Positions 9,868 through 30,665 of a DNA stretch of 64,000 nt are shown here, in pieces. The position numbers and the translations under genes are program-made. The first letter of the stretch is position 1. The number at the start of each line of letters is the position of its first letter. This DNA is from Brumimicrobium glaciale. Its GTDB lineage: Bacteria > Bacteroidota > Bacteroidia > Flavobacteriales_D > Crocinitomicaceae. Location: assembly GCF_004152935.1 (NCBI RefSeq), contig NZ_SETE01000003.1:387876-451875 (forward strand), in the 5' to 3' direction. A model generated the notes under the pieces. That model searched no databases. It was given only the letters and a program-made list of their open reading frames with translations, and had not been told where the DNA came from.

Positions 9868-10020
9868 ATATTTAGATGTTAGATTTTAGATGTTTGTCAA
9901 AAGACAAAAAGTCTAACATACAAAATCTATTGTTTGGTTTAAAAATTTTTAGAAGCTAAAGCTAGATGCATTAAAGCGCATATTTTCAACTATTTATGAG
10001 ATCAATAAAGGGCGTATTGG
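9868..10020. repeat. Intergenic repeat family A, copy 1 (hairpin-rich element; other copies at 30206..30436 and 30437..30665)
   Basis: Shares the tagattttaga...gtctaac...aaatcta hairpin module and the tttagaagctaaagctag...caataaa core with the two tandem copies near 30.3 kb. Confidence 0.6.
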
Positions 10021-10076
10021 ACTTCGACGCTGTTCAGCCACTTCCATCCATACATTCAAGCTTTTAAAAAAAAACA

Positions 10077-10994
10077 TTAGCTAATTTTCTTTTTCCCCCT
10101 AACTTTCATCAAGAGTTTAGAGAAATTAATATTATCGAAAATCAATCCTACCACTATAAAAATAAGACCTGCAATTGTGGAAACGAGGATGGTTTCGCCG
10201 AGAACAAAATAAATTACGATTAGAGAAAGGAAAGGAACCAAGTAGATGAATTTACTCACTTTAGCGGTGTGTGTTGACTTTTTTAAGGCCAGTGACCAAA
10301 TAACGAAGGTAATTCCCATTTCAAAAAAACCAACATAAGCAGCAGCAGAAAAGTATTTTAGAGAGAATTTAGGGAACTCAGAAAAAACAAAAAGAAAAAT
10401 TGTAATGTACACCATTCCAAAAAGGAAATTAAGAAACAGTTTCCCGATTTCGTCTCGTTTATCCTTAATATTATAAATCCAAAAAAGAGCCCAAATTACC
10501 GCTGAAAGTAAACCAAGCAAAGCGCCAAAAGGATTACTAAATGTAAATCCTAGAATATCTCCTTTTGTTGAAATCACGAGTACACCAATGAAACTGATGA
10601 ATATTGCAACGAAATTCTTTACTGTTATTTTCTGTCCTAAAATAGGAATAGAGAGTAAAGTCATCATGATAGGCCAAGTATAATTTAAAGGTTGCGCTTC
10701 TTGCGCTGGCAATAGTGAATAGGCTTTAAAAAGAACGATATAATACAAAAATGGATTGACCAGCCCGAAAACGGCCGATTTTAAATAAGCTTTTCTTTCA
10801 TATTGGAATACATCCTTTAGCTTATTCTGAAAAACCAGAATAAAAAACAAAGAGATTAAAGAACAGGAAATAGCCAGAAAAAGCAATTGCAAATAATCAA
10901 AATAGCCCAATGACAACTTCATTGCTGAAGCGACGGTACTCCATAAAATTACAGCAATTATGGCGTATAGATATGCTTTGTTTTGATCTTTCAT
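10077..10994 (-). CDS. EamA/DMT-family transporter
   Basis: 305 aa with ten predicted TM helices and the duplicated EamA-like halves. Confidence 0.7.
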   Translation of the reverse strand: MKDQNKAYLYAIIAVILWSTVASAMKLSLGYFDYLQLLFLAISCSLISLFFILVFQNKLKDVFQYERKAYLKSAVFGLVNPFLYYIVLFKAYSLLPAQEAQPLNYTWPIMMTLLSIPILGQKITVKNFVAIFISFIGVLVISTKGDILGFTFSNPFGALLGLLSAVIWALFWIYNIKDKRDEIGKLFLNFLFGMVYITIFLFVFSEFPKFSLKYFSAAAYVGFFEMGITFVIWSLALKKSTHTAKVSKFIYLVPFLSLIVIYFVLGETILVSTIAGLIFIVVGLIFDNINFSKLLMKVRGKKKIS

Positions 10995-11094
10995 ATTATA
11001 GTTTTAAGAAGCATAAGCAAGGGCGTTTTGCAAAACGCCCATACTTAATACTTCTTAAAAAGTACTCCGATGAAATGAGTTCAGTAACCTCTCA

Positions 11095-12048
11095 CTACCC
11101 CTCACCTTTTTCTCTTTTCTTTCTGTTCTCCTCATCAACTCTTTTCATTGTTTCACCAATTTGGTTTGACGCTGTAAACGAAGCCACCATATTGTTCAAC
11201 ATATCACTACCCGCTTGTGGCGAGTTTGGAAGTAAGATAAGATTAGAATTTGTTTCTTCTCCAAGAGATTGTAGCGTATCGTAATGTTGTGTTACCACGA
11301 TTAAAGCCGAAGCTTCTTGAGAATTAATTCCCACTTTGTTTAAGACATCAACACTTTCAACTAAACCTCTTGCGATTTCTCTTCTTTGATCTGCAATACC
11401 TTGACCTTGTAATCTTTTACTTTCTGCTTCTGCACGTGCTTTAGCTACAATTTTAATTCTTTCTGCTTCTGCTTCAAATTCAGCCGCTACTTTTTCACGT
11501 TCCGAAGCATTAATTCTGTTCATTGAAATTTTAACTTGCTCGTCTGGATCAATGTCTGTTACCAAAGTTTTGATAATATCGAATCCATAATCCTGCATCG
11601 CTTCGTTTAATTCTGATTTTACAGCATTTGCAACGTCGTCTTTACGCTCAAATACATTGTCTAATACCATTTTTGGAACTTCAGCACGTACAACATCAAA
11701 AACGTAAGATGTAATTTGAGATTGTGGATTTTCAAGCTTGTAGAAAGCTTCATAAACCTTGTCTTTCATTACTTGAAATTGAACAGAAACTTTTAAACGT
11801 ACAAAAACATCATCTTTGGTTTTTGTTTCAATGATTACATCCAACTGCTGGATTTTTAAATTGATTCGTCCAGCTACTTTATCTATCAAAGGAATTTTGA
11901 GTTGTAAACCTGAATCTCTAACCGATTGAAATTTACCAAAACGCTCCATAATTGCAGCAGTTTGTTGTTTTACGAGGAAAAATATGCCGTAAATCAAGAA
12001 AATGACAATGGCAAGGATGATCACATTGGAAATTGGAAATTCGTTCAT
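11095..12048 (-). CDS. SPFH/band-7 (stomatin/prohibitin-like) membrane protein
   Basis: 317 aa. N-terminal TM, an SPFH core, and a coiled C-terminal region rich in A/E/R. Confidence 0.75.
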   Translation of the reverse strand: MNEFPISNVIILAIVIFLIYGIFFLVKQQTAAIMERFGKFQSVRDSGLQLKIPLIDKVAGRINLKIQQLDVIIETKTKDDVFVRLKVSVQFQVMKDKVYEAFYKLENPQSQITSYVFDVVRAEVPKMVLDNVFERKDDVANAVKSELNEAMQDYGFDIIKTLVTDIDPDEQVKISMNRINASEREKVAAEFEAEAERIKIVAKARAEAESKRLQGQGIADQRREIARGLVESVDVLNKVGINSQEASALIVVTQHYDTLQSLGEETNSNLILLPNSPQAGSDMLNNMVASFTASNQIGETMKRVDEENRKKREKGEG

Positions 12049-12411
12049 AGCTATTAGTTTTGAACGAATTTACAATAAAGAAGTTAATAAACGATTAAAA
12101 CAAATAGGTTTGGTTAGATATGGACCTAACTTTTACATTTCAATAATTCCGTGTAATTAAATCACCTATAATGTTCCCGAAACATTAAGTCATTTATATG
12201 ACATTACAGTAAGCGCTGTATTGAAACGCTGACATTAGTCCCTTATTTTAATCGGAATGACGCTGATCTCTTCCCTCAGATTTTGCGCAGATTCAAATAA
12301 TGAAAAGTCTTGCAGGTCGATTGTCGGAGAAACTATAGATAATTCAATAAGATTATAAAAATAAGAACCTCCCTCTCGTTCTCGCTCCAAAGCAAGAAAT
12401 GAAAAAAAATA

Positions 12412-14250
12412 TTACAAACCTTGCATGGTACTCAACTTGTGATACAAACCATTTTTAGCAAAAAGTTCTTCATGCGTTCCGCGTTCGGCAATTTCACCTT
12501 TACTCAAAACCAAGATTAAATCGGCATTTTTAATGGTGCTTAAACGGTGAGCAATAACCAAGGAAGTTCGATTTTTCATTAAATTATCTAAAGCATCTTG
12601 AACCAATTTTTCGCTTTCTGTATCTAAAGCAGAAGTTGCTTCATCCAAAATCATGATGGGTGGATTTTTCAAAACTGCACGGGCAATACTCACTCGTTGT
12701 TTTTGACCTCCAGATAATTTGTTTCCACGTTCACCAATGTTCGTGTGGTAGCCATCTTCCATTGCAGAGATAAAATCATGCGCATTGGCTATTTTGGCTG
12801 CTTCCATCACTTCCTCTTCAGTTACATTGTTCATCCCAAAAGCGATGTTATTGAAAACCGTATCGTTAAACAGAATAGATTCTTGATTTACAATTCCTAC
12901 TTGATCACGTAAATCATGTACTGTAAATTGATTGATATTGGTTCCGTCATAAGTGATTTCACCCGAAGTAACATCATAGAATCGTGGAAGTAAATCAGCG
13001 ATAGTTGACTTCCCACTTCCAGATTCACCCACTAATGCAACAGTTTTTCCTTTCAGTAATTCGAAGTTCAAATGCTGCAAAACCATTTCTGTTTGATAAG
13101 AAAAAGATACGTTTTTAAATACAATCCCTTTTTCTAATGGATGAATAGCTGCTGGATGAACTGGATCAAGAATTTTCTCATCCGCTGATAAAATCTCTTC
13201 TATTCTTTCCTGACTCGCTTTTGCTTTACTCAGGTTCGCGCTATTCTTAGCTATATTCTGAACTGGAACTAACAATTGAGAGAATACGATAATGAATCCG
13301 ATAAACTCTTTCCCTGTGAAACCATCTCCAGCTGCTCCATCAAGAATCATTGAACCACCGTACCACACAATACCAATCATAACCAAAGCACCCAAAAACT
13401 CATTTAATGGCGAAGAAACATCTCTTTTTCTAAATGCACGCGTAGTTAATCTTTGGTGGTGTAAATTTATTGCTGCGAATTTTCTCACTGACTCATCCGT
13501 TGCATTGAATGCTTTTACAATTCTAATTCCTCCAAGGTATTCATCTAAAAATGAAAACAAAACACCCAATTGCTTTTGTCCTTTACTAGCAGTTCTTTTT
13601 AAACTTTTCCCTATTTGAGTAATGATTAAAGCAGAAACGGGCAGTAAAATAAAAGAGAAAAGTGTTAAAGCTGGACTCCAATAAACCAATACACTTACTG
13701 TAATGATTACAGATAAAGGATCTCTAAAAATCAATTCTAAAACAGCTACAACTGCAACTTCGATTTCATTGACATCGTTATTCATTCGTGACATCAAATC
13801 TCCTTTTTTCTCTTCTGTAAAGAATGAAATTGGCAATCCCATTGATTTTTTAAAGAGTTGATCTCGGTAATCTCTTACCACTGCCATTCTTAATTGGGAT
13901 TGATGGTAAATGGCCAGGTAACGGAATAAACTTTTAAAGAAAAACGCAATAACGACAGTTACACAAACAAAAAACAAAGCATGTTTTGGATCATTTTGCG
14001 CCATTGAAGTCATGAAATAATTGTAATAATTACTTAAAAACTCAATATAAGCTGAAATCCCGTCGTTTTCTAAAATTGGCTTACTCACTATTTCAACTTC
14101 TTCAGAAGGGAAAATAACTTGTAAAAAAGGTACAAAAAGCACCAATGAAAGAAGATTGAAAATGACATATAAGAAGTTAAAAACAATAGTAGCTATTGCT
14201 CTCGCTTTGTAAATAAATGTCGCTCTGAATATAGTCGATAATTGTTTCAT
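12412..14250 (-). CDS. ABC transporter, fused permease/ATPase (MsbA-like exporter)
   Basis: 612 aa. Six-TM ABC transmembrane domain, then Walker A GESGSGKST, signature LSGGQKQR, and Walker B ILDEATSALD. Confidence 0.85.
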   Translation of the reverse strand: MKQLSTIFRATFIYKARAIATIVFNFLYVIFNLLSLVLFVPFLQVIFPSEEVEIVSKPILENDGISAYIEFLSNYYNYFMTSMAQNDPKHALFFVCVTVVIAFFFKSLFRYLAIYHQSQLRMAVVRDYRDQLFKKSMGLPISFFTEEKKGDLMSRMNNDVNEIEVAVVAVLELIFRDPLSVIITVSVLVYWSPALTLFSFILLPVSALIITQIGKSLKRTASKGQKQLGVLFSFLDEYLGGIRIVKAFNATDESVRKFAAINLHHQRLTTRAFRKRDVSSPLNEFLGALVMIGIVWYGGSMILDGAAGDGFTGKEFIGFIIVFSQLLVPVQNIAKNSANLSKAKASQERIEEILSADEKILDPVHPAAIHPLEKGIVFKNVSFSYQTEMVLQHLNFELLKGKTVALVGESGSGKSTIADLLPRFYDVTSGEITYDGTNINQFTVHDLRDQVGIVNQESILFNDTVFNNIAFGMNNVTEEEVMEAAKIANAHDFISAMEDGYHTNIGERGNKLSGGQKQRVSIARAVLKNPPIMILDEATSALDTESEKLVQDALDNLMKNRTSLVIAHRLSTIKNADLILVLSKGEIAERGTHEELFAKNGLYHKLSTMQGL

Positions 14251-14304
14251 TCATCGCAAATATAGGATTTTTTCAAGTTTAAAGAGTAGACAAAAAGTTA
14301 TTAA

Positions 14305-14348
14305 TGATAAACGTAGAAACGCAATGCATTGCGTCTCTACGTTTATCA
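14305..14348. promoter_or_regulatory. 44-nt near-perfect palindrome in the divergent region between the ABC exporter and rbfA
   Basis: tgataaacgtagaaacgcaatg|cattgcgtctctacgtttatca, with one mismatched pair. Sits between the two divergent start codons at 14250 and 14394. Confidence 0.4.
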
Positions 14349-14393
14349 TAAAATGCATTCATACAATATCTAAATTATCACTACTTTTGCACT

Positions 14394-14729
14394 ATGGGTA
14401 CAATAAGACAAAACAAAATTGAGAAAGTCATTCAGGAGGAAGTTTCTAAAGTTTTCCAACAGAATGCGCGCGAATTGTGCATGGGAGCAATGGTTACAGC
14501 AACTGTGGTTCGTGTAACTCCGGATTTGAGCTTGGCTCGTGTATATTTAAGTATTTTTGCTGGTCCACCAAAGGAGGAAGTATTGCAAAACATACAGATT
14601 AACAAAGGAAAAATTCGTGGTGACGTTGGAAGAAGATTAAAAGATATGCGTCATATTCCTGATTTAGAATTCTTCATTGATGATTCATTGGATTACGCTG
14701 AAAAAATCGATGAATTGTTAAAGAAATAA
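14394..14729 (+). CDS. rbfA: Ribosome-binding factor A
   Basis: 111 aa of RbfA-like sequence and size, with conserved rbfA-FtsX-like permease synteny as seen in Bacteroidota. Confidence 0.75.
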   Translation: MGTIRQNKIEKVIQEEVSKVFQQNARELCMGAMVTATVVRVTPDLSLARVYLSIFAGPPKEEVLQNIQINKGKIRGDVGRRLKDMRHIPDLEFFIDDSLDYAEKIDELLKK

Positions 14730-14733
14730 GTCT

Positions 14734-15945
14734 ATGAATGTTGCTCGATTCATAGCACGAAGGTACTTTAAAGCTAAAAAATCTCGAAATGTAATTAACC
14801 TCATCACTATGATTAGTGTTGTGGGAATTGCTATTTCTACTGCTGCTTTGGTGATTTTACTTTCTGCATTTAATGGAATTGAGCAAATGGTTATAAAATT
14901 GTACAGCGATTTTGATCCATCGATCAGTATTCGTTCTGCAAAAGCAAAAACCTTTAATCAAGGCTTTATAGATTTAGAGAAAATTAAAGCGGTTGAAGGG
15001 GTTCAAAATACATCGCGTGCCATTGAGGAAGTCATCATTTTAAAACATGAAGACAAATGGGTTCATGCTGAAATGGTTGGTGTAGACACCAGTTTTTTAA
15101 CCATGTCTAAGATGAAAGACCACCTTGTGGATGGTATTCCAACTTTGTATATCAACAATAAACCGCAAGCCATTTTTGGAGCATATTTGTTAGATAAATT
15201 GGGCGGTTACATTCCGATGTCTGATCATATTCAAGAACAAATCACGTTTAATGTTCCTTTACGAGAAGCAAAACTACGCCCAGGAAAAAACCCTTTGAAT
15301 GTGCGTGTTGTTAGTGTTTCCTCTCGCATGAATTTCAACAGAGAAGTCAACGCTGAAAAAGCAGTTATTCCTTATGAATTGGCCAATGAACTGCTAGAAT
15401 ACGGAGAAGATATTACGGCAATGTATGTTGATGTGAATGACGATTACAATCTAAATTCGGTCAAAAAAGAGATCCAAAATGTTGTAGGAGATGATTTTGA
15501 AGTAAAAACTAACTTTGAAAAGAATGAGTTGATTTTCAAAACAAGTCAATCCGAACGCCTAATAGTTTACTTCATTTTGGTGTTTATTTTTATTCTGGCT
15601 TCTTTCAATCTCATTGCTTCTATTGCGATGCTTTTTGTTGAGAAAAAGTCAGACATTACCACACTTTATGGATTAGGAGCAACAAAAAGCACCATTTTCA
15701 ACATCTTCTTCTTTGAAGGATTAATGATTGTGGGAAGAGGAATTGTTTTCGGATTAATAATCGGTTATTTTGTGACCTTCTCACAAATCTATCTCGGCTT
15801 AGTAGCAATGCCAAGCGCACCTGGAGAAAGTTTCCCGATGGTGACCACTTGGTCTGATGCATTTATGATTATTTCATCAGTGACTGTTTTAGGACTGATC
15901 GTTTCTTATTTCCCAACGAAGGTTTTGATTCGTAGACACGAATGA
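14734..15945 (+). CDS. FtsX-like ABC transporter permease (LolC/E-like)
   Basis: 403 aa. N-terminal TM, a large periplasmic loop, and a C-terminal FtsX 3-TM bundle. Confidence 0.7.
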   Translation: MNVARFIARRYFKAKKSRNVINLITMISVVGIAISTAALVILLSAFNGIEQMVIKLYSDFDPSISIRSAKAKTFNQGFIDLEKIKAVEGVQNTSRAIEEVIILKHEDKWVHAEMVGVDTSFLTMSKMKDHLVDGIPTLYINNKPQAIFGAYLLDKLGGYIPMSDHIQEQITFNVPLREAKLRPGKNPLNVRVVSVSSRMNFNREVNAEKAVIPYELANELLEYGEDITAMYVDVNDDYNLNSVKKEIQNVVGDDFEVKTNFEKNELIFKTSQSERLIVYFILVFIFILASFNLIASIAMLFVEKKSDITTLYGLGATKSTIFNIFFFEGLMIVGRGIVFGLIIGYFVTFSQIYLGLVAMPSAPGESFPMVTTWSDAFMIISSVTVLGLIVSYFPTKVLIRRHE

Positions 15946-16010
15946 TTTAATGTTTAATGGTTAATTATTAATGTTTAACGAGGGTTGTTTTTAATTGTTA
16001 ATTTTTAGCG
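15946..16010. repeat. Intergenic repeat family B, copy 2
   Basis: Contains the exact 16-mer ttaatgtttaacgagg and aatggttaa motifs also found at 5686..5750. Confidence 0.6.
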
Positions 16011-16336
16011 AAGGTTCGTATTGAATTTCTACTGTTTAGAAATTGAGGTTGTTACTCAATTGTGGAGTTTTAATCTAATTGATTTCACCTTCGCGTACGC
16101 GTTGAATAATGGTCTCCTCCAACTGAAGGATGACACGACTATGATGGGTTTGGGTTGAAAAACGTGGATTAAAAAATCCTCTCCCTCAGTCCCTCTCCAA
16201 AGAGGGAAGTGCTTCGAATCAAGCTTTTGCCATATAAGAAGAGACTCCTCAATCTTATAGTTGTAAGCAATTAGCGGCTTAACTCAGCAATCCAATGAGA
16301 AACAATATCAATGATTTTATCAGTAGCCCAAAATTA

Positions 16337-18310
16337 TCAATTGTCAATTAACTGAACGAATCCAGATTTATCAACATCTTCGCCAGTAATAGTTTTGGCT
16401 TTTATGACATAGAAAAATGTTCCGTTGGTAATTTTATTGCCTTTTTTATCTGTTCCATCCCATTTGAAATCAGGAGTATCGAATTCACGAACTAAATTTC
16501 CCCAGCGATTTACGATCACACATTCTAGTTGTTGAATTCCTTCGAAAGAGATCAGTTTAAAGTAATCGTTAATACCATCAGAATTTGGTGTAAAAACGTT
16601 GGGTACTTCAACATCACAATTGGGATTCACTGAGATAAAAACAGAATCTAAATCTGATTTACATCCTCCAACATTTGCTTGTACATAAAAGTAGCTAGAT
16701 TCTGAAGGTGACAACATCTGACTCGCCCCAATCAAATTATTTGGAAACCATGTGAATTCAGAATTGGGAATCGATGAAACAGCCACTAAGTTTGCTTCAT
16801 CACCTAAGCATAAGTTAACACTGTCTGGTAAAGAAACAAGTGGCTTTTCGCCTAAAACGAGTTGAATGGAATCTATTTCCGTTCCACAAACTGGATGTGT
16901 TCCTTCAAGATATACCCAGCCAATATCAGCAATGGTAGTACTTAAAACTGGAGTTGTTTCGTTTCTTGGTAACCATAAAAAATCAGTTTCAGTTAGATTA
17001 GAGATGGCTTGTAAACTGTTTTGGTCGCCTTCACAAAAAACGGTATTTCCTTCAATTTCAACTTCTAATTCCTCCAGTACAGTCATTTCAAATTCAGCTG
17101 TTGCTACACATCCTTGTGGACTAGTTGCTGTTACTTCATAAATTGTTGTTGTACTTGGCGCAACTGTAATTGTAGCTAGTGTTAAATTATTATTCGTCCA
17201 TAAAAAATCTGTTTGTGGAATTGAAGAAATAACTTTAATTAATCCTGCTGTACCCTCACATATAACCGAATCACCTTCAAATGTAAGAACCGGTAAAGGA
17301 TTAACATTTACGACAACCGTTCCTGTGTTCGATATACAACCGTTTGCATCTTCTCCCACTACAGTATAAGACGTTGTTGCGTTTGGAGAAACATTAATTG
17401 TAGCTCCTGCTCCACCTGGCGTCCAAGTATAAGTCATATTTGAAGACACAGAACTTGCTGTAATATCAACATTATCTCCCTCACAAATGGTTTGTGCTGA
17501 ATTCACTTGAATTACAGGGTTTGGTGGAATTGTAACAGTAACTTGATCAGTATAAGTACAAACTGGTCGAAAAGAGATATCATCAATTGAAAAGTCATTT
17601 CCACCTCCAGAACTATTCAAATTAGTAATACAAATATCAATTGATGTATTGGCTCCGGAATTCCATACTTCAAAAAATTGATTCCATGTACATGCATTCG
17701 TTGCCGTTGAAAATGGTGTTCCTAATGTGGTTCCGTTTATAGAAAATTGAAGTTGTGCAACATTTGGATCATTTAAAGCATTGGCTGCCCAAGTACTAAA
17801 CTGATAGTTCGTATTGGGGGAGACATTTACAGTCTGACACCAAACATTTGTTCCTGGAATATCAGCACCGTTAACAACCATCATATTTCCAGTTCCGGTA
17901 GTATGGTCTGGACAAGAGCTAAAGTTATTGTGAGCATTGCTTGGAGAAGTAGTTATGGCATAAGTACCAGGATTTGAAAGCAATCCATAAGTACCGCCTG
18001 GAACACCAAGTGTATAACCAGTTGTAAAACCAGTATTTCCTGCTGAAAAATCTCCATTTACTACTATTTCTGGTCCCAAATCAGTCGCAAAACAGCTATA
18101 CGTTCCTGATGTAGAAACTGTAATAGAAGATTGAGAAGATCCTGTACTCCAAGCATAACTATCTAGTCCTTGATTGGCTTGAAGTGTATACGTTTGACCA
18201 CAAAGTAATGTTGAATCATTTCCGATAGAGAAGTTAATGTTACAAGGACTTTGGGCTTGCAGTGTAAAAACACAAAACAATAGGGCGACTAAAAGGAATA
18301 TTGATTTCAT
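16337..18310 (-). CDS. T9SS cargo / adhesin-like protein: CBM-like N-terminal beta-sandwich, Ig-like repeats, type-B C-terminal sorting domain (gliding-motility-associated CTD)
   Basis: 657 aa with a signal peptide. C-terminal motif PNVFTPNSDGINDYF...RWGNLV. The N-terminal ~230 aa, ending NDFSIDDISF, is paralogous to the N-terminus of 23577..25880. Confidence 0.75.
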   Translation of the reverse strand: MKSIFLLVALLFCVFTLQAQSPCNINFSIGNDSTLLCGQTYTLQANQGLDSYAWSTGSSQSSITVSTSGTYSCFATDLGPEIVVNGDFSAGNTGFTTGYTLGVPGGTYGLLSNPGTYAITTSPSNAHNNFSSCPDHTTGTGNMMVVNGADIPGTNVWCQTVNVSPNTNYQFSTWAANALNDPNVAQLQFSINGTTLGTPFSTATNACTWNQFFEVWNSGANTSIDICITNLNSSGGGNDFSIDDISFRPVCTYTDQVTVTIPPNPVIQVNSAQTICEGDNVDITASSVSSNMTYTWTPGGAGATINVSPNATTSYTVVGEDANGCISNTGTVVVNVNPLPVLTFEGDSVICEGTAGLIKVISSIPQTDFLWTNNNLTLATITVAPSTTTIYEVTATSPQGCVATAEFEMTVLEELEVEIEGNTVFCEGDQNSLQAISNLTETDFLWLPRNETTPVLSTTIADIGWVYLEGTHPVCGTEIDSIQLVLGEKPLVSLPDSVNLCLGDEANLVAVSSIPNSEFTWFPNNLIGASQMLSPSESSYFYVQANVGGCKSDLDSVFISVNPNCDVEVPNVFTPNSDGINDYFKLISFEGIQQLECVIVNRWGNLVREFDTPDFKWDGTDKKGNKITNGTFFYVIKAKTITGEDVDKSGFVQLIDN

Positions 18311-18493
18311 AATTTTTAAAATATCTGGTTATTAAAATTAATTTAATAGTTATTGTTAGACGAGATGAAAGGCTAAATAGTTGTTTTGCTTTTCACATTA
18401 ATATGCCAAATTCTAACTAATAAAGAACAGTTTAAACTATTGAAAGTAAAGGCATCTCGATAAACATAATCAGCTTTAGTTTCATAATCTAAG

Positions 18494-18531
18494 GTATAAA
18501 AAAAGTGATGGATGAAATGCATCCACCACTT
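18494..18531 (-). terminator. Rho-independent terminator downstream of the 1015-aa T9SS gene
   Basis: On the minus strand: stem agtggtggatgcatttcatccatcact followed by ttttttta. Confidence 0.65.
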
Positions 18532-18540
18532 TTAAAAAAT

Positions 18541-21588: not shown

Positions 21589-21616
21589 ATTGCGTGTTTA
21601 ATAATTAATATTAAAC

Positions 21617-21624: not shown

Positions 21625-21658
21625 ACTACAGCGCTTTTATATATCGAAAATTTAGCGA

Positions 21659-21676
21659 GACAAAAACAAGACAACT
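21659..21676. promoter_or_regulatory. Conserved 18-mer GACAAAAACAAGACAACT upstream of a T9SS cargo gene (copy 1)
   Basis: Exact 18/18 identity with 25993..26010. Both copies sit ~32-34 nt upstream of a TAnnTTTG box belonging to a minus-strand T9SS cargo gene. Confidence 0.5.
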
Positions 21677-21725
21677 AGGAATTAAAAATCAACTATACCT
21701 TTCAGTTCTTAAAGATTGAGTTGGA

Positions 21726-23369: not shown

Positions 23370-23576
23370 AACCTCATCTCTTTTTTCATGTAAAATTGAT
23401 AGTCAATTACGAATTCCCAACTTTTTAATTAAACAATTGAATTAAAGCTTTATCAATAAATTCAAAATGCAGATTCGTAACTTCTGAAAGTTATCTAAAA
23501 TATTGAAACTAAAAAGTAAGTCCTTGTAAAAAATCACCGAATTCGTAATTGACAATTATAAATGATCAATTGGTTT

Positions 23577-25880
23577 CTATCTTATCAAAACAACAGTCCC
23601 CGTCTTTATAACTACATTTTCATTTTTTAATTCATTGAAAGTTATCTTCCAAGAATACATACCTGCTTTTACTATTTGACTCCCATAAGTTCCATCCCAA
23701 CCTACACTGTAATCATTTGATTCAAATATTTTTTCTCCCCAACGATTATATACTTCAAACTTATACTGCTGCGGATCTACTCCGACAGTCATTATTGGAA
23801 GAAAAACATTGTTATTGTCATCACCATTTGGCGTAAAAGCATTGGGCACATAAAAAATTGTTTGGTCTTTTACTGGAACAATTCTCGTTGTTGAGTCAAT
23901 ACAGCCTTTATCCGAAGTAACGATTAACTTAACCTCATAGTTGCTTTCTTTACCAAACGGGAAAGTGAAAATTGGATGAGCTTCTGTGCTTTGACCTAAT
24001 CCATCAAAATTCCATTGATTTTGAGCGTTCAACTCTGATTGATTTTCAAAATTAACTACAGGGTTATCAGAAAATATACTTTTTGGTTTAAAATCAAAAG
24101 CCGCAACAGGATCTGGGTTAATACAGATAAGCTTGTTTTCTGTCAAACTTGAGGTACAAAAATTGTCTGTTACAATTCTTAAACCGATGTTATAACATTT
24201 CACTTCTTCAAAAGTATAACTCATGGTGTTGTTCACTCCCACTTGGTTTCCATCAACAAACCAAGTATAATCTGTGCTTCCATTCACAACTGTTAAATCC
24301 GTAAAATCAACAGTTAATGGACTACAACCTTCATATAAATTAGCAGAGAATTGAATATCTGCTATTTCACTTAACTCTATACTTACAAATGCTGTATCTG
24401 CTTCACACGGAAAATCATTGCTGACCACAAATTGGAAATTATAGCTATTTTTCGATAAATTATCTAACTGTAAAATTCCAGATGAAGGATTAAATATTGA
24501 ATTTGGCAACCCATCCAAAGAGGACCAAACACCAGCATTATTGACGGTTAAAAAGTTATTTAAGTTTGTTGTTCCATCACTACAAAAACGTTCAGAAATA
24601 TCATTTCCTGCGCTTTTAAAAACCTTAATGTCCAGTTCAAAAACAGCAGTATCTGATGGACAAAATGTACTGGTTAAGACATAGTCATAATTATTAACCC
24701 CTAACAATTGGCTAATATCTAATTGTCCGCCATTTATCAATATCCCAAGTTCAGTATACCATGCTCCTGATGTAGAAATTGAAGGATCTAATAAACTAAA
24801 TAGATCAACATTTAGATCCGTATCACAAAAAGAAAACGAGTCATCCATTCCAGCGTCTGGAGGCGTGTGAAAAGTGACAATAAAATCTTGTTGTTCATCA
24901 CAATAACCGTCATCAGAAACAGTCACTGTAAAAGTTCCAGAAGTATCTACTTGAATTGTTTGGGTGGTTTCATTTGTAATCCACTCATAATCAAAACCAG
25001 GGTTTTCTGCATTCAAGGTTAAAATTTCTCCTTCACAGTCATTTAAAATAGTTGGTAGAGAAAATACTGGACTCGAATTATAAGTAACATCAATGGTATC
25101 ATTAAAAACACAAATCGGAGAAAATGAAATATCATCAAGTGAAAAGTCATTTCCACCACCAGTACTATTCAAATTGGTAATACAAATTTCAGCCGTTGTT
25201 GCTGTTCCAGAATTCCAAATTTCAAAAAACTGATTCCATGTACATGCAGTCGGAGAGGCAGCAAAAGGTATTCCTATATTCACCCCATTTATGGTAAATT
25301 GAAGTTGCGCAACATTTAGATCATTCAAAGCATTGGCTACCCAAGTACTAAATTCATAATCAGTATTTGGAGAGACATTTACTGTTTGACACCAAACACT
25401 CGTTCCGGGAATATTTGCTCCATTCACAATCATCATACTTCCAACTCCTGTTGTATGGTCTCCACAAAAGCTAAAATTATTGTGCACATTGCTGGGTGAG
25501 GTATTGATGGCATAAGTTCCAGGATTTGACAAAATTCCCCAAGAACCACCTGTACCCACAATATAATCTGTTAGAAAGCTTGTGTTTCCCTGTGAAAAAT
25601 CACCATTTATCACCAAGTTAGTAGATAAATATTTTACTTCAACGAAATAAATCCCAGTTGCTGAAACTGTCCTTGTAGCTGAATTTGATCCATTATCCCA
25701 AGTAATTGAAGGATTATTTGTTAAACCCGATAAATCAAATTGTAAGGTATTGTTTGGACAAAGTATGGTGTCGTTTCCAAGGTCTGGACCAGTAAATTGA
25801 GTGCATTGGGTTTGTGCATGAACTATAAAAATAGCGAACATACCCAATTGTATAAATATATTTTTGAAATGAGCTTTCAT
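23577..25880 (-). CDS. T9SS cargo / adhesin-like protein with CBM-like N-terminal domain and type-B C-terminal sorting domain
   Basis: 767 aa with a signal peptide. N-terminal domain ending NDFSLDDISF is paralogous to 16337..18310. C-terminus PNAFTPNGDDNNNVF...RWGEKIF. Confidence 0.75.
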   Translation of the reverse strand: MKAHFKNIFIQLGMFAIFIVHAQTQCTQFTGPDLGNDTILCPNNTLQFDLSGLTNNPSITWDNGSNSATRTVSATGIYFVEVKYLSTNLVINGDFSQGNTSFLTDYIVGTGGSWGILSNPGTYAINTSPSNVHNNFSFCGDHTTGVGSMMIVNGANIPGTSVWCQTVNVSPNTDYEFSTWVANALNDLNVAQLQFTINGVNIGIPFAASPTACTWNQFFEIWNSGTATTAEICITNLNSTGGGNDFSLDDISFSPICVFNDTIDVTYNSSPVFSLPTILNDCEGEILTLNAENPGFDYEWITNETTQTIQVDTSGTFTVTVSDDGYCDEQQDFIVTFHTPPDAGMDDSFSFCDTDLNVDLFSLLDPSISTSGAWYTELGILINGGQLDISQLLGVNNYDYVLTSTFCPSDTAVFELDIKVFKSAGNDISERFCSDGTTNLNNFLTVNNAGVWSSLDGLPNSIFNPSSGILQLDNLSKNSYNFQFVVSNDFPCEADTAFVSIELSEIADIQFSANLYEGCSPLTVDFTDLTVVNGSTDYTWFVDGNQVGVNNTMSYTFEEVKCYNIGLRIVTDNFCTSSLTENKLICINPDPVAAFDFKPKSIFSDNPVVNFENQSELNAQNQWNFDGLGQSTEAHPIFTFPFGKESNYEVKLIVTSDKGCIDSTTRIVPVKDQTIFYVPNAFTPNGDDNNNVFLPIMTVGVDPQQYKFEVYNRWGEKIFESNDYSVGWDGTYGSQIVKAGMYSWKITFNELKNENVVIKTGTVVLIR

Positions 25881-25992
25881 AAAATAATTTGAAAATAGAA
25901 ATTTAACATCAAGTTAAAGGCGAAAATTAAGCGTTAAAGCACATAATCATTCAAATATAAAAAGATTATTTCTGGAATTTTATTAGTCGTGG

Positions 25993-26010
25993 GACAAAAA
26001 CAAGACAACT
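25993..26010. promoter_or_regulatory. Conserved 18-mer GACAAAAACAAGACAACT (copy 2), upstream of the 767-aa T9SS gene
   Basis: Identical to 21659..21676. A TATATTTG box on the minus strand (plus coordinates 25952..25959) lies 32 nt downstream in gene orientation. Confidence 0.5.
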
Positions 26011-26168
26011 CTCAAAAAACAAGCATTTATTACCAGTTCATTAGGATGTATACAAAGAATACACTTGTTTTTGAAAAGTAATAATCAATTTTTATCATAC
26101 CTTTTCAATTATATAGTTTTCCAAAAAAGAAATCTCAACCAAGACAGCAATATTCAATCAATAACTAT

Positions 26169-26176
26169 TAAATTTG
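26169..26176 (+). promoter_or_regulatory. Candidate -7 box TAAATTTG for serS
   Basis: TAnnTTTG match 22 nt upstream of the ATG at 26198. Confidence 0.35.
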
Positions 26177-26197
26177 CGCTTTCTAAAATGATACATT

Positions 26198-27469
26198 ATG
26201 TTGGAAATTACAAGGATTAGAGCAGAGAAAGATATCCTAATTGAAGGATTGAAAAAACGAGGCGTAGATTTTAGCCCACAATTAAACGAAATAACATCAC
26301 TTGATGAGTCATGGCGTGCTAAAAAATCTGAATTAGAATCAGTTCAATCCGACAGTAATAAAATCTCAAAAGAGATTGGAAAACTAATGGGAGCAGGAAA
26401 AACAGAGGAAGCGAATGCTGCCAAAGAACAAACTGCTAAACTTAAAAAACAAGAGCAAACGCTCAAGGATGAAGTAAGTCAATTAGAGGATAAAATTCAG
26501 GTATTACTTTACGAAGTTCCTAACGTTCCATTGGCAATAGTTCCTTCAGGCAAATCTGAAAATGATAACATAACAGTTGAAGAAGTAGGACAAAAAGTTC
26601 AGTTTTCTGGAACACCATTACCGCATTGGGAATTGGCTAAAAAATATGACATCATCGACTTTGAGTTGGGTGTTAAAGTTACAGGAGCAGGATTTCCATT
26701 CTATAAAGGAAAAGGAGCGAAAATTCAACGTGCTTTAATTAACTTCTTTTTAGCTGAAGCAGATAAAGCAGGTTATACTGAATATATTCCGCCATTAATG
26801 GTGAACGAAGCAAGTGGAATTGGCACTGGACAATTGCCAGACAAAGAAGGTCAAATGTATCATGATGCAAAGGACAATTTGTATTTGATTCCTACCTCTG
26901 AAGTTCCTTTAACGAATATTTACCGAGATGTCATTCTTCCAGATGAAAATTTCTCAATCAAAATGACAGGATACACGCCAAACTTTAGAAGGGAAGCTGG
27001 ATCTTATGGAAGTGATGTGCGTGGATTAAATCGTTTACATCAATTTGATAAAGTTGAATTGGTGCGTATTGAGCATCCAGACCGTTCTGAAAAAGCATTG
27101 GAAGAAATGGTAAACCACGTAAAAGGTTTACTTGAAAAACTAGGTTTACAATACCGTGTTTTACGTCTTTGTGGTGGTGATTTAGGATTTACATCTGCTA
27201 TCACTTATGATTTTGAAGTATTTTCAGCAGCACAAGAAAAATGGTTAGAAGTGAGTTCTGTTTCATTATTCGAAACTTTCCAAGCCAACCGTTTAAAATT
27301 GCGTTTCAGAAATGAAAGTAAGAAAACACAATTGTGTCACACTTTAAATGGAAGTGCTTTGGCATTACCAAGAATTTTGGCTGCGTTGCTTGAGAATTAT
27401 CAAACGCCAGAAGGAATTGAAATTCCAGAAGTATTAGAGAAGTATGTGAATTTTAAGATGATAAATTAA
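26198..27469 (+). CDS. serS: Seryl-tRNA synthetase
   Basis: 423 aa. N-terminal coiled-coil arm, then a class II core with motif 2 (FRREAGSYG) and motif 3. Confidence 0.9.
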   Translation: MLEITRIRAEKDILIEGLKKRGVDFSPQLNEITSLDESWRAKKSELESVQSDSNKISKEIGKLMGAGKTEEANAAKEQTAKLKKQEQTLKDEVSQLEDKIQVLLYEVPNVPLAIVPSGKSENDNITVEEVGQKVQFSGTPLPHWELAKKYDIIDFELGVKVTGAGFPFYKGKGAKIQRALINFFLAEADKAGYTEYIPPLMVNEASGIGTGQLPDKEGQMYHDAKDNLYLIPTSEVPLTNIYRDVILPDENFSIKMTGYTPNFRREAGSYGSDVRGLNRLHQFDKVELVRIEHPDRSEKALEEMVNHVKGLLEKLGLQYRVLRLCGGDLGFTSAITYDFEVFSAAQEKWLEVSSVSLFETFQANRLKLRFRNESKKTQLCHTLNGSALALPRILAALLENYQTPEGIEIPEVLEKYVNFKMIN

Positions 27470-27537
27470 TCAGCTCCACAGGAGCGACACATTAATAGCC
27501 AAGAATGTAAATCCTTGGTATAAAAAATAGTGATAAA

Positions 27538-27599
27538 ATAATCCCAAAAAAAAACCGACGTAATTGCATGCAATTACGTCGGTTTTTTTTTGGGATTAT
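27538..27599. terminator. 62-nt perfect palindrome: bidirectional rho-independent terminator after serS
   Basis: ataatccc a9 ccgacgtaattgcatgcaattacgtcgg t9 gggattat. Perfectly self-complementary, with A/T runs on both sides. Confidence 0.75.
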
Positions 27600-27857
27600 A
27601 GATTTGTGTGGTTCTATCGGATGGACTCACGTCCATTCCTATTAATATGTCGTCACTCTGTGACTGTAAACTATAATAAAGAGTTTAGCATAATTTAAAT
27701 ACTGTATTATACATCCAGAACAACTCTCGGGAGTATAAGACAGTATTTAAGATTATTCATTAATTTCGTCCCTCAATATTTTATGTGACAAATGTAACGG
27801 TGAAAACGCTCATCTGTTTGTAAATTTGCACTGTAATTGAAACTTAAAACAAAAACA

Positions 27858-28115
27858 ATGAGCAATAATAGAAAGGTTATAGACGTACGTTCAGAAATGG
27901 AATTCATGGGTGGAAATGTTGCAGGAAGCATAAATATTCCTTTGCAAGAGGTTCCTGATCGTTTAGATGAATTTAAGGCGATGGATAACCCTATTCTTTG
28001 TTGTGCATCAGGAAATAGAAGTGGACAAGCAGTTCAGTTTTTAAAAGCAAATGGCATCGAATGTGAAAACGGCGGTGGCTGGATGGAAGTAAATTATCAA
28101 ATGGCACAACAATAA
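27858..28115 (+). CDS. Single-domain rhodanese (sulfurtransferase)
   Basis: Likely start is MSNNRK at 27858; the ORF track begins at a TTG at 27837. Active-site CCASGNRS loop. Confidence 0.75.
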   Translation: MSNNRKVIDVRSEMEFMGGNVAGSINIPLQEVPDRLDEFKAMDNPILCCASGNRSGQAVQFLKANGIECENGGGWMEVNYQMAQQ

Positions 28116-28120
28116 TAGTT

Positions 28121-28426
28121 ATGGGATTTTTAAGTAGATTGTTTGGAGGAGGACCTAAAGTTGATTTAGCTGAATTGAAGAAAAATGGAGCGCTCATCCT
28201 TGATGTGCGTAACCCAGGAGAATTCAAAAGCGGCCATATCAAAGGTTCTAAAAACATTCCTTTACAAGAGTTAAATAGCAAAATGAAAGGTTTAAAAAAG
28301 GACCAAGTAATCATCACCTGTTGTATGTCAGGAATGCGTAGTGGAAGTGCTAAAAACATTTTAAAAAATGCGGGTTTTGAAGTTTACAATGGCGGCGGAT
28401 GGTCAAGCCTAAAGAATAAGATATAA
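28121..28426 (+). CDS. Single-domain rhodanese (sulfurtransferase), tandem paralogue
   Basis: 101 aa. Active-site CCMSGMRS loop. 5 nt downstream of the first rhodanese. Confidence 0.75.
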   Translation: MGFLSRLFGGGPKVDLAELKKNGALILDVRNPGEFKSGHIKGSKNIPLQELNSKMKGLKKDQVIITCCMSGMRSGSAKNILKNAGFEVYNGGGWSSLKNKI

Positions 28427-28464
28427 TAGTAGTGAATTATAATTAGTAGTAGTGTTTTTAATAA

Positions 28465-28498
28465 AAAGTCACTCCTTTGGGAGTGACTTTTTTGTTTT
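28465..28498 (+). terminator. Rho-independent terminator after the rhodanese pair
   Basis: aaagtcactcc tttgg ggagtgacttt followed by tttgtttt. Confidence 0.7.
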
Positions 28499-28543
28499 GA
28501 TTCGTTTAAATAAATTACCTTTGTTTTTAATAAATGATCAAAA

Positions 28544-29068
28544 ATGGAATTATATACTTTACATATTATTGAAACTATTGTTCTTCTTGTTGCTTACTTT
28601 ATTTTAAAGTATATCACAAAAAAAGCAACGAATAAAGCAGCATTAAAATTCTCAAAATCAAAGACACGTGTAAAGATCATTAAGAAAATCATTCAACTGA
28701 TGTTGATTACAATAACCTTAACTTTTCTATTGCTCATCTGGGGAGTTGAACAATCAGAACTAATGTTCTTCATTACCTCACTACTTACTGTATTAGGAAT
28801 TGCTTTTTTCGCGCAATGGTCTATTATATCAAACATTACTGCTACGTTGATTATTTTCTTCAATCACCCCGCAAAAATTGGTGACGAAATTGAAATATTT
28901 GATGTAGATCACCCTGTTCTAGGGAGAATTAGCGATGTGGGTATTTTCTTTGTTACAGTTAGAAATAAAGAAGGTGCATTAATTACCATCCCAAGTAATC
29001 TATTCATTCAAAAAATGATAATTAAAAGAGATAATCAAGCGTCTTCTATAACTTCAAAACTCCTCTAA
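28544..29068 (+). CDS. Small MscS-like mechanosensitive channel family protein (TM helices + beta domain, no C-terminal alpha/beta domain)
   Basis: 174 aa. Three TM segments, then KIGDEIEIFDV...GRISDVGIFFVTVRNKEGALITIPSNLF, which is typical of the MscS beta-domain. Confidence 0.6.
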   Translation: MELYTLHIIETIVLLVAYFILKYITKKATNKAALKFSKSKTRVKIIKKIIQLMLITITLTFLLLIWGVEQSELMFFITSLLTVLGIAFFAQWSIISNITATLIIFFNHPAKIGDEIEIFDVDHPVLGRISDVGIFFVTVRNKEGALITIPSNLFIQKMIIKRDNQASSITSKLL

Positions 29069-29660
29069 ATCCCCTAGAAATATAATAAGATATTGCACTG
29101 TTGTGATAGATAAAAACTTCATCATATCTATAGTCACCAAAAATCGCACCCCCTAGTTTTCTTATTCTCTCAGGTGTTTTTAACCAACTAGAAGTTTTGG
29201 AATCGAAGGTCCCAAATTCTTGAAGTCTCCTGTATCCGATATGGTCAAGGATATCAATTCCCATCTCTTCGGCAACATCTACAATATTATTTTTAGGTTT
29301 TGCTTTAGGTCTAGAAAGCCATGCTTCCTTGTCATAACATAAGCTTCTGCGTCCTTTTGGGCTTTCAATTGAACAGTCGTAAAAATAGTAGGTATCTGTT
29401 TGGGAATCATAATCAATCACATCAGGTTCACCGCCTGTTTCCTCCATTTTATGAAGAGACCACAGTTTTTCTGGATATGACTTTAATTTTTCTAATATAT
29501 TCTCCCATTTTAATGACTCGTGTCTCATTAAATTTTTTTCAAATCTTTCTTTAAGTGTTTTGATTAAGCGATCGCTTTCACGAGGGGTTATCGTCTGATT
29601 CATAATTGTAAGAGTTAGTTTAGTATAGCTTAGCATTGCTATAATGTACAAAAAGCACAT
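29046..29660 (-). CDS. Hypothetical cytosolic protein (DUF4256-like)
   Basis: 204 aa, though the real start may be MNQTITPRE at 29603. Its 3' end overlaps the 3' end of the convergent MscS-like gene by 23 nt. Confidence 0.5.
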   Translation of the reverse strand: MCFLYIIAMLSYTKLTLTIMNQTITPRESDRLIKTLKERFEKNLMRHESLKWENILEKLKSYPEKLWSLHKMEETGGEPDVIDYDSQTDTYYFYDCSIESPKGRRSLCYDKEAWLSRPKAKPKNNIVDVAEEMGIDILDHIGYRRLQEFGTFDSKTSSWLKTPERIRKLGGAIFGDYRYDEVFIYHNSAISYYISRGFRGVLKL

Positions 29661-29896
29661 AAATTGTTAACAAAGCTAATCGTTTTTTAAAGCTAATCGT
29701 TGTTTTCTAATTTCTTTTTAAGTTTTTCATTCATTAAGACAAATCCGTTTTTTGTGTTTAATTCGAAGTTTTTACCAAAAAAAAGCAATAAAAAACCTTT
29801 AAAAACCTCACTATGTAAGAAAGTTGTGGATCCACCTCCATTGTCAATTAGTTCAAACTGATGTGTTCAATCAAATAATCCTCTAAATAAAAAATG

Positions 29897-30133
29897 TCAC
29901 AACCAACAGAGTTTTGTACCTTTTTCTAGCGCCAAAACTGTAGGATTAAAAATCATTCCCTTTGAATTAGGTGGAACTATTTTCACTTTTAGCTTTTCTC
30001 CTATTTCAATTTTTCCAGTGATCGATTGAATAAAAGGGTTCCAAACAGGATATTCTTTAAAATTAGTAAGTACTTCCCAGATTCTCTCTTTACTTGAATT
30101 AATTACAATCTCTGTTTTAATCTCTTTTGTCAT
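29897..30133 (-). pseudogene. Truncated SRPBCC (polyketide-cyclase/Bet v1-like) gene fragment
   Basis: 78-aa ORF whose N-terminal half resembles an SRPBCC/START fold (EIVINSSKERIWEVLTNFKEYPVWNPFIQS), but it stops after about half the expected ~140-150 aa. Lies directly beside the family-A repeats. Confidence 0.4.
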
Positions 30134-30205
30134 TTGATTTTGTTTTTATTTATTACATCACAAAGATCTGGAAGGATAGTAACTTTCCTCTTGACAAATA
30201 TGAAG

Positions 30206-30436
30206 ACATTTAGATTTTAGAGGTTAGACATTAGACATTTTTAGTCTTCTGTCTTTCGTCTAACTTCTAAAATCTATTTTTTGAAATGAAAATTTTAGAA
30301 GCTAAAGCTAGCTGCACTAATCCCGATGGCTTATCGGGAGCATAGTTTTAACTATTTCTGAGACCAATAAAAAGTATTGATTGTTAGAATTAAGCCAAAT
30401 TTATAAAGTTGTTTTTTTTCTAATTCTACTAAATAT
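30206..30436. repeat. Intergenic repeat family A, copy 2 (tandem with copy 3)
   Basis: ~230 bp. Hairpin tagattttagaggttagac...gtctaac(t)tctaaaatcta, the tttagaagctaaagctagctgcactaat segment, and the cccgatggcttatcggg hairpin. ~90% identical to 30437..30665. Confidence 0.7.
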
Positions 30437-30665
30437 TTAGAGGTTAGATTTTAGAGGTTAGACATTAGACATTTTTCAGTCTTTTGTCTTTTGTCTAACC
30501 TCTAAAATCTATTGTTTGATATGAAAATTTTTAGAAGCCAAAACCAACTGCACTAATCCCGATGGCTTATCGGGAGCATAGTTTTAACTATTTCTGAGAC
30601 CAATAAAAAGTATTGATTGTTAGAGTTAAGCCGAATTTATAAAAGTTGTTTTTTTCTAATTCTAC
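30437..30665. repeat. Intergenic repeat family A, copy 3; includes the last ~9 codons and stop of the Crp/Fnr gene
   Basis: Tandem to copy 2. The segment aagttgtttttttctaattctac that encodes the Crp/Fnr C-terminus (RKKQLL*) is present in both copies. Confidence 0.7.

Follow-up and report, generated by a model that had tools for sequence, protein, structure and literature searches.

Repeat copies at the EamA and Crp/Fnr loci

The DNA stretch analyzed here (hereafter, the window) consists of 64,000 nucleotides (nt) from the genome of Brumimicrobium glaciale (contig NZ_SETE01000003.1, positions 387,876 to 451,875) and contains three copies of a hairpin-rich intergenic repeat. Copy 1 is located downstream of an EamA gene, and copies 2 and 3 form a tandem array between the 3' end of a gene for a Crp/Fnr-type regulator and the 5' end of an SRPBCC gene (Table 1). 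Comparison with other genomes indicates that these repeats are very probably non-autonomous, decaying derivatives of an insertion sequence (IS) of the IS200 group (the IS200/IS605 family, with tnpA only) that is widespread in Bacteroidota.

A 57-nt core is common to all three copies. The string TTTTAGAAGCYAAARCYARMTGCA has three exact matches in the window, compared with 0.02 expected by chance, and the 3' block AACTATTTMTGAGAYCAATAAA also has three. A profile of this region, built from genomes other than that of the window, matched positions 9945-10010 (E = 3e-17), 30293-30372 (E = 2.5e-15), and 30527-30608 (E = 4e-14) in an nhmmer search and gave no other match in the window. All three copies fit the family alignment column for column, and two deletions, each at a hairpin tip, account for most of the difference between copy 1 and the other two copies. 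The first-pass annotation, made without database searches, had located the three copies correctly. It had, however, assigned copy 1 to positions 9868..10020, whereas the element reaches further left, to about 9803, and apparently includes a decayed right end.

The long imperfect hairpin reported for each copy is present in all of them. Its arms are 27 nt long and 93% complementary in copy 3 (30445-30471 and 30485-30511), 27 nt and 85% complementary in copy 2 (30211-30237 and 30250-30276), and just 15 nt and 87% complementary in copy 1 (9880-9894 and 9915-9929). The second stem of copies 2 and 3, TCCCGAT..ATCGGGA, occurs nowhere else in the window. As previously described, these two copies are directly tandem; their 235-nt repeat units share 91.8% identity. 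The duplication also includes the end of the Crp/Fnr gene, comprising 9 codons and the stop (AGTAGAATTAGAAAAAAACAACTTTTATAA) rather than the 8 residues and stop noted before.

Table 1. Features of the two repeat loci and their neighboring genes
Feature	Positions	Strand	Description
Copy 1	9803..10004	-	Apparently complete but decayed 202-nt non-autonomous IS200-group element, assigned by left-end profile, empty site, and length
Copy 1, right-end remnants	9811..9855	-	ACTATAGACTATAAGTGTCATCGGTT, compared with canonical ACTATGGACTnAAAGTCCATAGGTT; second hairpin, AGAAT-AAA-ATTCT, at 9843-9855
Copy 1, long internal hairpin	9880..9929		Shorter than in the other copies
Copy 1, left-end block	9945..10004	-	Three small hairpins; left-end profile and family alignment
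TTTAT (ATAAA on the plus strand)	10005..10009	-	Conserved target, or transposon-adjacent, motif abutting the left end of copy 1
SRPBCC pseudogene	29693..30133	-	Neighbor outside the element; full length, with TGA for GGA at two codons
Copy 2	30206..30366	-	Partial element, left end and long hairpin; SRPBCC-proximal unit
Long AT-rich hairpin	30211..30276 (copy 2); 30445-30511 (copy 3)		Defined by arms and folding
GC-rich hairpin TCCCGAT-GGCTT-ATCGGGA	30321..30339 (copy 2); 30557-30575 (copy 3)		Insertion into the left-end hairpin
Duplicated flank in the array	30367..30430	-	TTTAT, 29-nt spacer, and pseudo-copy of the Crp/Fnr 3' end
Copy 3	30431..30602	-	Partial element, left end and long hairpin; Crp-proximal unit
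Crp/Fnr tail and flank	30603..30665	-	TTTAT, 29-nt spacer, and last 9 codons and stop of the real gene; remainder of the 235-nt unit
Crp/Fnr gene	30637-31209	-	Neighbor whose 3' end belongs to the repeat unit; product 100% identical to the Crp/Fnr protein of B. glaciale

Family identity of the conserved block

A scan for the core pattern, with one genome taken per species, detected 34 loci in members of Flavobacterium (at least 11 of them in F. piscis), Aquimarina, Flavivirga, Maribacter, Tenacibaculum, Gelidibacter, Roseivirga, Cyclobacteriaceae, and Prolixibacteraceae. The block of ∼57 nt is near-invariant at all 34 loci and ends sharply at ..GAGACCA/ATAAA, with unrelated sequence beyond. 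The first-pass annotation had named a lack of further copies in the genome, together with a single local duplication without conserved secondary structure, as the outcome that would speak against its reading; dozens of related copies were found in other genomes. The same distribution makes it barely credible that the repeats arose solely by local duplication of ordinary intergenic DNA, without any mobile element. The pair at positions 30206-30665 is a local tandem duplication that includes non-element DNA, but the core occurs in 34 stretches at unrelated loci from many genera and beside a transposase, and copy 1, which lies 20 kb away, has its own empty site.

At the loci L003, L009, L025, and L033, an open reading frame (ORF) of ∼145 codons is found on the opposite strand, starting ∼20 nt from the other side of the block. 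Its product matches the Pfam family Y1_Tnp (PF01797) with E = 1e-36 and the IS200 model NF033573 with 127.7 bits (cut-off 55), and its database homologues from Christiangramia, Algoriphagus, Maribacter, Gillisia, and other genera are annotated as IS200/IS605 family transposases. In Aquimarina, Maribacter, and Prolixibacteraceae, the block is located directly upstream of this 145-aa Y1 transposase. Because the adjoining opposite-strand ORF encodes an IS200-type Y1 transposase, the block represents the left end (LE) of an IS200-group element of ∼0.58 kb, whose sense strand corresponds to the minus strand of the window.

Y1 transposases with the HUH motif also include the RAYT proteins, relatives of the IS200 TnpA that are associated with repetitive extragenic palindromic (REP) sequences, and the first-pass annotation had listed "REP-like" among its descriptions. 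A REP-like or BIME-like element moved by a RAYT would agree with the copies being short, hairpin-forming, intergenic, and located beside gene 3' ends. However, the transposase scores only 27.3 bits with the REP_Tyr_transpos model, well under its cut-off of 80 and far from its IS200 score. The full elements consist of LE, tnpA, and the right end (RE) rather than of a RAYT flanked by inverted REPs, and the repeat units are ∼200 nt and not 20 to 40 nt long. The REP-like description was therefore not upheld, and an origin of this kind appears very unlikely.

The RE of the family reads ..CTATGGACTTTnAGTCCATAGTGGTT and is preceded by a second hairpin of the GCAGACTTTCAGTCTGC type. In the full elements, the distance from this RE (AAACCACTATGGACTnAAAGTCCATAGG plus the second hairpin) to the core is 507 to 514 nt. 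The canonical hairpins are TGCAC-TTTA-GTGCA in the LE and CTATGGAC-TTTAA-GTCCATAG, followed by the second hairpin, in the RE, with the core ACTTTnAGT common to all. Both ends thus carry subterminal imperfect palindromes; there are no terminal inverted repeats, and the ends are not inverted copies of each other. The signatures by which family members can be recognized are the LE ..TGGTCTCAnAAATAGTTAAAACTATGCACTTTAGTGCATTTAGCTTTAGCTTCTAAAA, the RE ..CTATGGACTTTnAGTCCATAGTGGTT, and the target TTTAT. This pentanucleotide abuts the LE in all 13 F. piscis-type Flavobacterium copies and adjoins it at most of the other family loci as well. A variant motif, TTAAC, was seen only at L012 and L025, which are also the only loci with an A-to-G change 4 nt 5' of the foot of the LE hairpin (column 33 of alignment A2). 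In IS608, pairing between a guide sequence and the cleavage site is known and would predict such coupling; the two loci (n = 2) may represent a possible case of guide/target co-variation of that kind.

The abrupt end of conservation, with variable sequence after it, would also suit a right-end omega RNA (reRNA) scaffold of a TnpB- or IscB-encoding element of the IS605 type, with the flank acting as guide; RNAs of this kind are often encoded by ORF-less IS200/IS605 derivatives (PMC10055086). However, the block is found at the element end that precedes tnpA, and the full-length elements encode tnpA alone, with no TnpB or IscB ORF in their ∼0.58 kb. There is also no match to the HEARO or IS605-orfB families of Rfam. 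The recognition of the opposite-strand ORF as tnpA, along with the 0.58-kb length of the elements, led to the rejection of a TnpB omega RNA right end, and the omega RNA interpretation is regarded as extremely unlikely.

ORF-less derivatives in other Bacteroidota

The RE is found just 131 to 154 nt from the core, with no ORF between them, in a number of genomes, among them those of F. piscis and F. frigoris. These ORF-less elements of ∼200 nt consist of the two RE hairpins, a long hairpin, and the LE, so that tnpA is replaced by a long hairpin of variable sequence. The long hairpin is lineage-specific and made of short tandem motifs, such as CACAAATT in F. piscis and CACAGATT at L014 and L029, which are unrelated to the hairpin in the window. 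The 13 F. piscis-type copies have nearly the same sequence up to sharp boundaries, beyond which their flanks are unrelated. In the literature searched, no paper was found that describes this widespread Bacteroidota family of IS200 elements and mini-elements.

At five of the Flavobacterium loci (L002, L006, L010, L024, and L028), long host ORFs on the same strand read into the mini-element and share a single TAA codon inside the RE terminus (AAC TAA ACC), at -142/-144 from the core. The complement of the target motif, ATAAA, itself contains TAA. Flavobacterium mini-elements may thus frequently insert at stop codons and provide a new stop in their place.

Copy 1, a mini-element with an empty site

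On the minus (transposase-sense) strand, copy 1 displays the order LE, long hairpin, and two apparent RE hairpin remnants. Its length of 202 nt, without an ORF, compares with ∼203 nt in the F. piscis mini-elements. The central LE hairpin, ATGCGC-TTTA-ATGCAT, is a degraded form of the canonical one, and the RE remnant agrees with the family in its position, orientation, and distance from the LE. The adjacent TTTAT is located 66 nt downstream of the EamA stop codon on the minus strand.

A relative with 92% identity in EamA (L043) has no copy 1, and the flanks are contiguous there (..GCCGGTAAACA/CAAGCTTTG..); the window reads ..GCCCTTTAT/202 nt/CAAGCTGTTTC.. (the CAAGCTG side). The outer boundary of copy 1 coincides with both the predicted RE terminus (..TTATTCAGT/) and the empty-site junction. 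The flanks ..TTTAT/ and /CAAGCT.. are joined at the empty site, with no target duplication. A 99% relative (L041) does carry copy 1, with a longer long hairpin than that of the window. Copy 1 is an IS200-derived mini-element present in B. glaciale and the 99% relative and absent from the 92% relative. The "MITE-like" description in the first-pass annotation, that is, a miniature non-autonomous transposable element, agrees with the core being an IS200-group LE and with the 202-nt insertion.

The tandem array at the Crp/Fnr gene

Each 235-nt unit of the array joins the final 30 nt of the Crp/Fnr gene to a 29-nt spacer with TTTAT, followed by the LE and then the long hairpin; on the minus strand, TTTAT follows the Crp stop codon at 29 nt. 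The boundary between copy 2 and its conserved flank CTTGATATTTGTCAAG was set by comparison with L036, L038, and L048. Two relatives with Crp proteins 85 to 87% identical (L038 and L048) have a short Crp-SRPBCC spacer, an intact SRPBCC gene, and no element, whereas in the 96% relative (L036/L037) an intact SRPBCC gene of 146 codons is accompanied by three tandem units. The Crp-locus copy is thus absent from the 85 to 87% relatives, has no RE, and forms a tandem array with two units in the window and three in the closer relative, in agreement with the earlier suggestion that the repeat had been involved in local rearrangement. A search for the RE at copies 2 and 3 with the RE profile found none. 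The apex sequence AGACTGAAAAATGTCT in these copies resembles an inverted RE hairpin; the resemblance was taken as a coincidence, because variable heptamer repeats make up the apex.

Relative to the empty sites, the inserted sequence starts ∼19 nt 5' of the LE (AACAATCAATACTTTTTAT/TGGTCTC..) and ends with ..CTAAAATCTAGATAT right before CTTGATATTTGTCAAG. The sequence CAATAC just outside the LE is common to the Crp-locus copies and copy 1. At the copy 1 locus, CAATAC looks like host flank (compare TCCAAATGCC in L043), with the homology judged by eye: for the two flanks around it, a local aligner paired the first ∼19 nt alone, and MAFFT left the stretch unaligned. Since CAATAC is apparently host flank at copy 1, we infer that the Crp-locus copy is probably a non-canonical partial copy of copy 1 rather than the product of an independent transposition. 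An extended target preference is an alternative account of the shared CAATAC.

The later history of the array can be followed from its variable sites. The diagnostic sites GCAGCTAGC, AGAAGTTAGAC, and ACT-AAAAATG unite the SRPBCC-proximal units of both genomes, and the Crp-proximal units are likewise grouped, so the first duplication is older than the split of the two lineages. The remaining diagnostic sites are mosaic between units. The 16-nt GC-hairpin insertion is present in both units of the window, in none of the three units of the 96% relative, and in no other family member, which points to gene conversion. The apex of the long hairpin consists of AGAAGAC-type heptamers (TTTTGTC on the other arm), whose number varies across units and strains; examples of this microsatellite are found at L036 positions 4950-4995 (unit 2) and L041 positions 11060-11130.

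The Crp/Fnr tails show the same kind of exchange. The ancestral tail, ..RKKQLL and stop, is carried by the real gene in the window and also by the 87% relative. The pseudo-tail of the window (positions 30401-30430) has one A gained and one T lost and reads ..SRIRKKTTL and stop. In L036, this frameshifted version forms the end of the real Crp/Fnr gene (..RKKTTL and stop, positions 4579-4609, protein P0002), and the QLL version is located in the downstream repeat units. In this genome, the tandem array has overwritten the 3' end of the Crp/Fnr gene, changing QLL to TTL. Taken together, the positional grouping, mosaic sites, shared GC hairpin, exchanged tails, and heptamer variation point to unequal homologous recombination and conversion after a single duplication. 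An array made by TnpA itself was also considered, as the junction ..AAATAT/TTAGTAGAA can be read as an element end. Because the alignment there is ambiguous and no TTTAT is present at the left breakpoint, recombination or slippage is the simpler reading of the array's origin, with TnpA action a less favored candidate.

Two short-read contigs end inside the LE block, SRR8466711_32 (L001) at 42 nt past the Crp stop codon and SRR10849365_45654 (L042) at 123 nt past the EamA stop codon, as expected of an assembler at a repeat.

Folding and possible RNA functions

Copy 3 folds far more stably than shuffled sequences (z about -7), whether as DNA or as RNA. The three small hairpins of the LE are 93.8% paired across the family alignment. 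That alignment contains no double-sided compensatory change in these hairpins, and shuffled alignments match the real one. One-sided changes in the LE stems are asymmetric: read on the transposase-sense strand, they give 27 G.T and 6 A.C cells, or 21 and 2 outside Brumimicrobium, with the counted cells not being phylogenetically independent. The G.T excess fits folding of the transposase-sense strand only, as DNA or RNA. It can be taken as an indirect hint of strand-specific transposition of single-stranded DNA.

On the plus strand, the LE hairpin is followed by AGTTTT, and the GC hairpin of the window units is stronger and terminator-like (2 such structures found, 0.2 expected). The promoter scan used the sigma-70 consensus and is uninformative for Bacteroidota.

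These features also bear on the proposal that the copies form a locus for a small RNA (sRNA) or cis-regulatory RNA, which would be compatible with a transposon origin. Two versions can be envisaged, both with precedents in Salmonella IS200: a transposase-sense RNA, like the regulatory sRNA processed from the 5' untranslated region (UTR) of tnpA (5'tnpA; PMC5435999, PMC12594629), and a plus-strand antisense RNA terminated at the LE hairpin, like art200, an Hfq-binding sRNA encoded opposite the tnpA 5' UTR (PMC4513863). The 57-nt LE is strongly conserved across classes of Bacteroidota, ORF-less copies included, and the wobble asymmetry would also be expected from a transposase-sense RNA. The plus-strand LE hairpin with AGTTTT, replaced in the window units by the stronger GC hairpin, would in turn suit the antisense version. 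However, recent horizontal spread and recognition by TnpA explain the conservation equally well, the LE hairpins lack compensatory covariation, and copy 1, folded over its whole length, shows no significant structure (z = -0.5). A search of the window against Rfam 15 gave no match at the gathering thresholds, and a permissive search of both loci returned only sub-threshold plant and animal microRNA hairpins, the best with 27 bits against a threshold of 90. An RNA locus of this kind is therefore considered unlikely.

Somewhat less likely still is co-option of the IS200-derived module, made up of the long hairpin, the LE, and, as a recent gain in B. glaciale, the GC hairpin, to serve as a 3' UTR, terminator, or sRNA element, with the array exchanging Crp/Fnr tails. 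Such a co-opted array would be a recombination device that swaps the C-terminal tails ..KKQLL and ..KKTTL on the Crp/Fnr regulator.

Origin and present state of the repeats

Under the preferred interpretation, derivation from an IS200-group element, copy 1 would have arrived by single-strand "peel-and-paste" transposition, with TnpA supplied in trans and recognizing the subterminal hairpins. Peel-and-paste transposition by TnpA is the established mechanism of IS608 and ISDra2. The Crp-locus copy would then have arisen by a non-canonical partial duplication of copy 1 that carried along the ∼19 nt 5' of the LE, including CAATAC, and would have been duplicated once. Later, unequal homologous recombination and gene conversion could have expanded, contracted, and homogenized the array, spreading the GC hairpin to both units of the window and swapping the Crp C terminus in the relative.

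Several observations weigh against this interpretation. No tnpA gene was found in the window or in the examined Brumimicrobium loci, and the subfamily is represented in the Brumimicrobium-type sequence searched by two loci only. The support for the LE structure consists of its conservation and the wobble asymmetry. The RE of copy 1 is weakly recognizable: its profile match has E = 2.8 over all DNA searched and E = 0.004 when the search is restricted to the expected 512 nt and strand. The empty-site junction in L043 reads GGTAAACA and not TTTAT. Copies 2 and 3 lack the RE, their LE hairpin is disrupted by the 16-nt insertion, and their insertion route is one that we infer. A search of a metagenome collection with a subfamily-specific 27-mer turned up no contig other than that of the close relative, which was already known.

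Given the degraded RE of copy 1 and, in copies 2 and 3, the missing RE and disrupted LE hairpin, the copies are most likely immobile. All three are probably remnants without a dedicated function, apart from the hairpins that they contribute to the EamA and Crp transcripts in their 3' regions. The hairpin-rich repeat, the two assembly break points, and the odd duplicated gene tail can all be explained as remnants of IS200 type. The three repeats are of a known kind, an IS200/IS605-derived non-autonomous element and an array driven by recombination, and open no new biological question; the main value of the analysis lies in the annotation and the sequence signatures of the family. The array provides a small example of a transposon remnant seeding a variable tandem repeat that is able to overwrite the 3' end of a neighboring gene.

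Comparison with characterized systems

Similarly to IS200 of Salmonella and E. coli, the full-length members of this family are very small elements that encode only a Y1 HUH transposase of ∼145 aa, lack terminal inverted repeats, and have hairpins near both ends and a structured LE/tnpA 5' region. They differ in size (∼0.58 kb versus ∼0.7 kb) and have end sequences unrelated to those of enterobacterial IS200; the window copies, moreover, carry no tnpA. IS608 and ISDra2 share with this family the subterminal imperfect palindromes on one strand and insertion 3' of a short motif (here, TTTAT) with no target duplication. In contrast to them, the family described here has no tnpB.

The closest parallels to the mini-elements are the gene-less derivatives that retain the IS ends and presumably depend on TnpA supplied in trans for their mobilization, namely the palindrome-associated transposable elements (PATEs) of Haloquadratum (PMC3119063) and the ORF-less IS200/IS605 derivatives of Geobacillus stearothermophilus (PMC10055086). 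Copy 1 and the F. piscis copies fit this description, except that a long hairpin of short tandem motifs, which evolves rapidly, occupies their middle part in place of an omega RNA. Copies 2 and 3 depart from PATEs in the loss of one end and in their probable amplification by recombination rather than by transposition.

The 5'tnpA sRNA and art200 likewise come from the LE/5' UTR of an IS200 element (PMC5435999, PMC12594629, PMC4513863) and have no sequence similarity to the window copies. REP elements and their RAYTs are similar in being short, hairpin-forming intergenic repeats handled by a relative of Y1 transposases. They differ in unit size and architecture, and the transposase of the present family falls under the RAYT model cut-off. 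To our knowledge, Hfq-type regulation has not been established in Bacteroidota.

The SRPBCC gene, a putative operator, and other repeats

The SRPBCC gene next to copy 2 had been described as a 78-aa fragment that looks truncated and abuts the repeat. The ORF is indeed truncated, but it is the first part of a 146-codon gene with two in-frame TGA codons, at codon 79 (29897-29899) and codon 89 (29867-29869). Both are changes from GGA (Gly) to TGA, 10 codons apart; two identical nonsense changes at Gly codons are odd for random decay. The gene is collinear over 146 codons with the intact orthologue of the 96% relative, with differences at 15 of the 441 nt. The repeat lies 73 nt upstream of the SRPBCC start, so that the 5' end of the gene, not the truncated end, faces it. 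The implied link between repeat and truncation does not hold: both point mutations are far from the repeat, and because the relative with more units keeps an intact SRPBCC gene, the truncation is unrelated to the repeat.

An FNR/CRP-like palindrome, CTTGA(T/C)ATTTGTCAAG, directly follows the Crp/Fnr gene, a short distance before the start of the SRPBCC gene, and is kept in all relatives: at 30190-30205 in the window (minus strand, CTTCATATTTGTCAAG), 5248-5263 in L036, 4578-4593 in L038, and ∼2119-2134 in L048. In the window, where it stands beside the pseudogenized SRPBCC gene, the palindrome has a G-to-C change. It is probably an operator of the adjacent Crp/Fnr regulator, which would probably control the SRPBCC gene through this conserved TTGAT-N4-GTCAA box.

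The window contains other repeats as well. A short intergenic family (TTTAATTGTTAATGTTTAACGAGG..), unrelated to the IS200 element, is found at positions 5700-5755, 15943-15998, and 15990-16028, with the last two overlapping in tandem. Diverged direct repeats, 71 to 78% identical, are seen at 246-545 and 1603-1902 (246-1902, period 1357), at 17532-17831 and 25084-25383, and at 45182-47367 (period about 1156 to 1266). The pair with the period of 1357 appears to represent two adjacent HisKA_2/HWE_HK genes called in L041, and the other diverged repeats look like paralogous genes.

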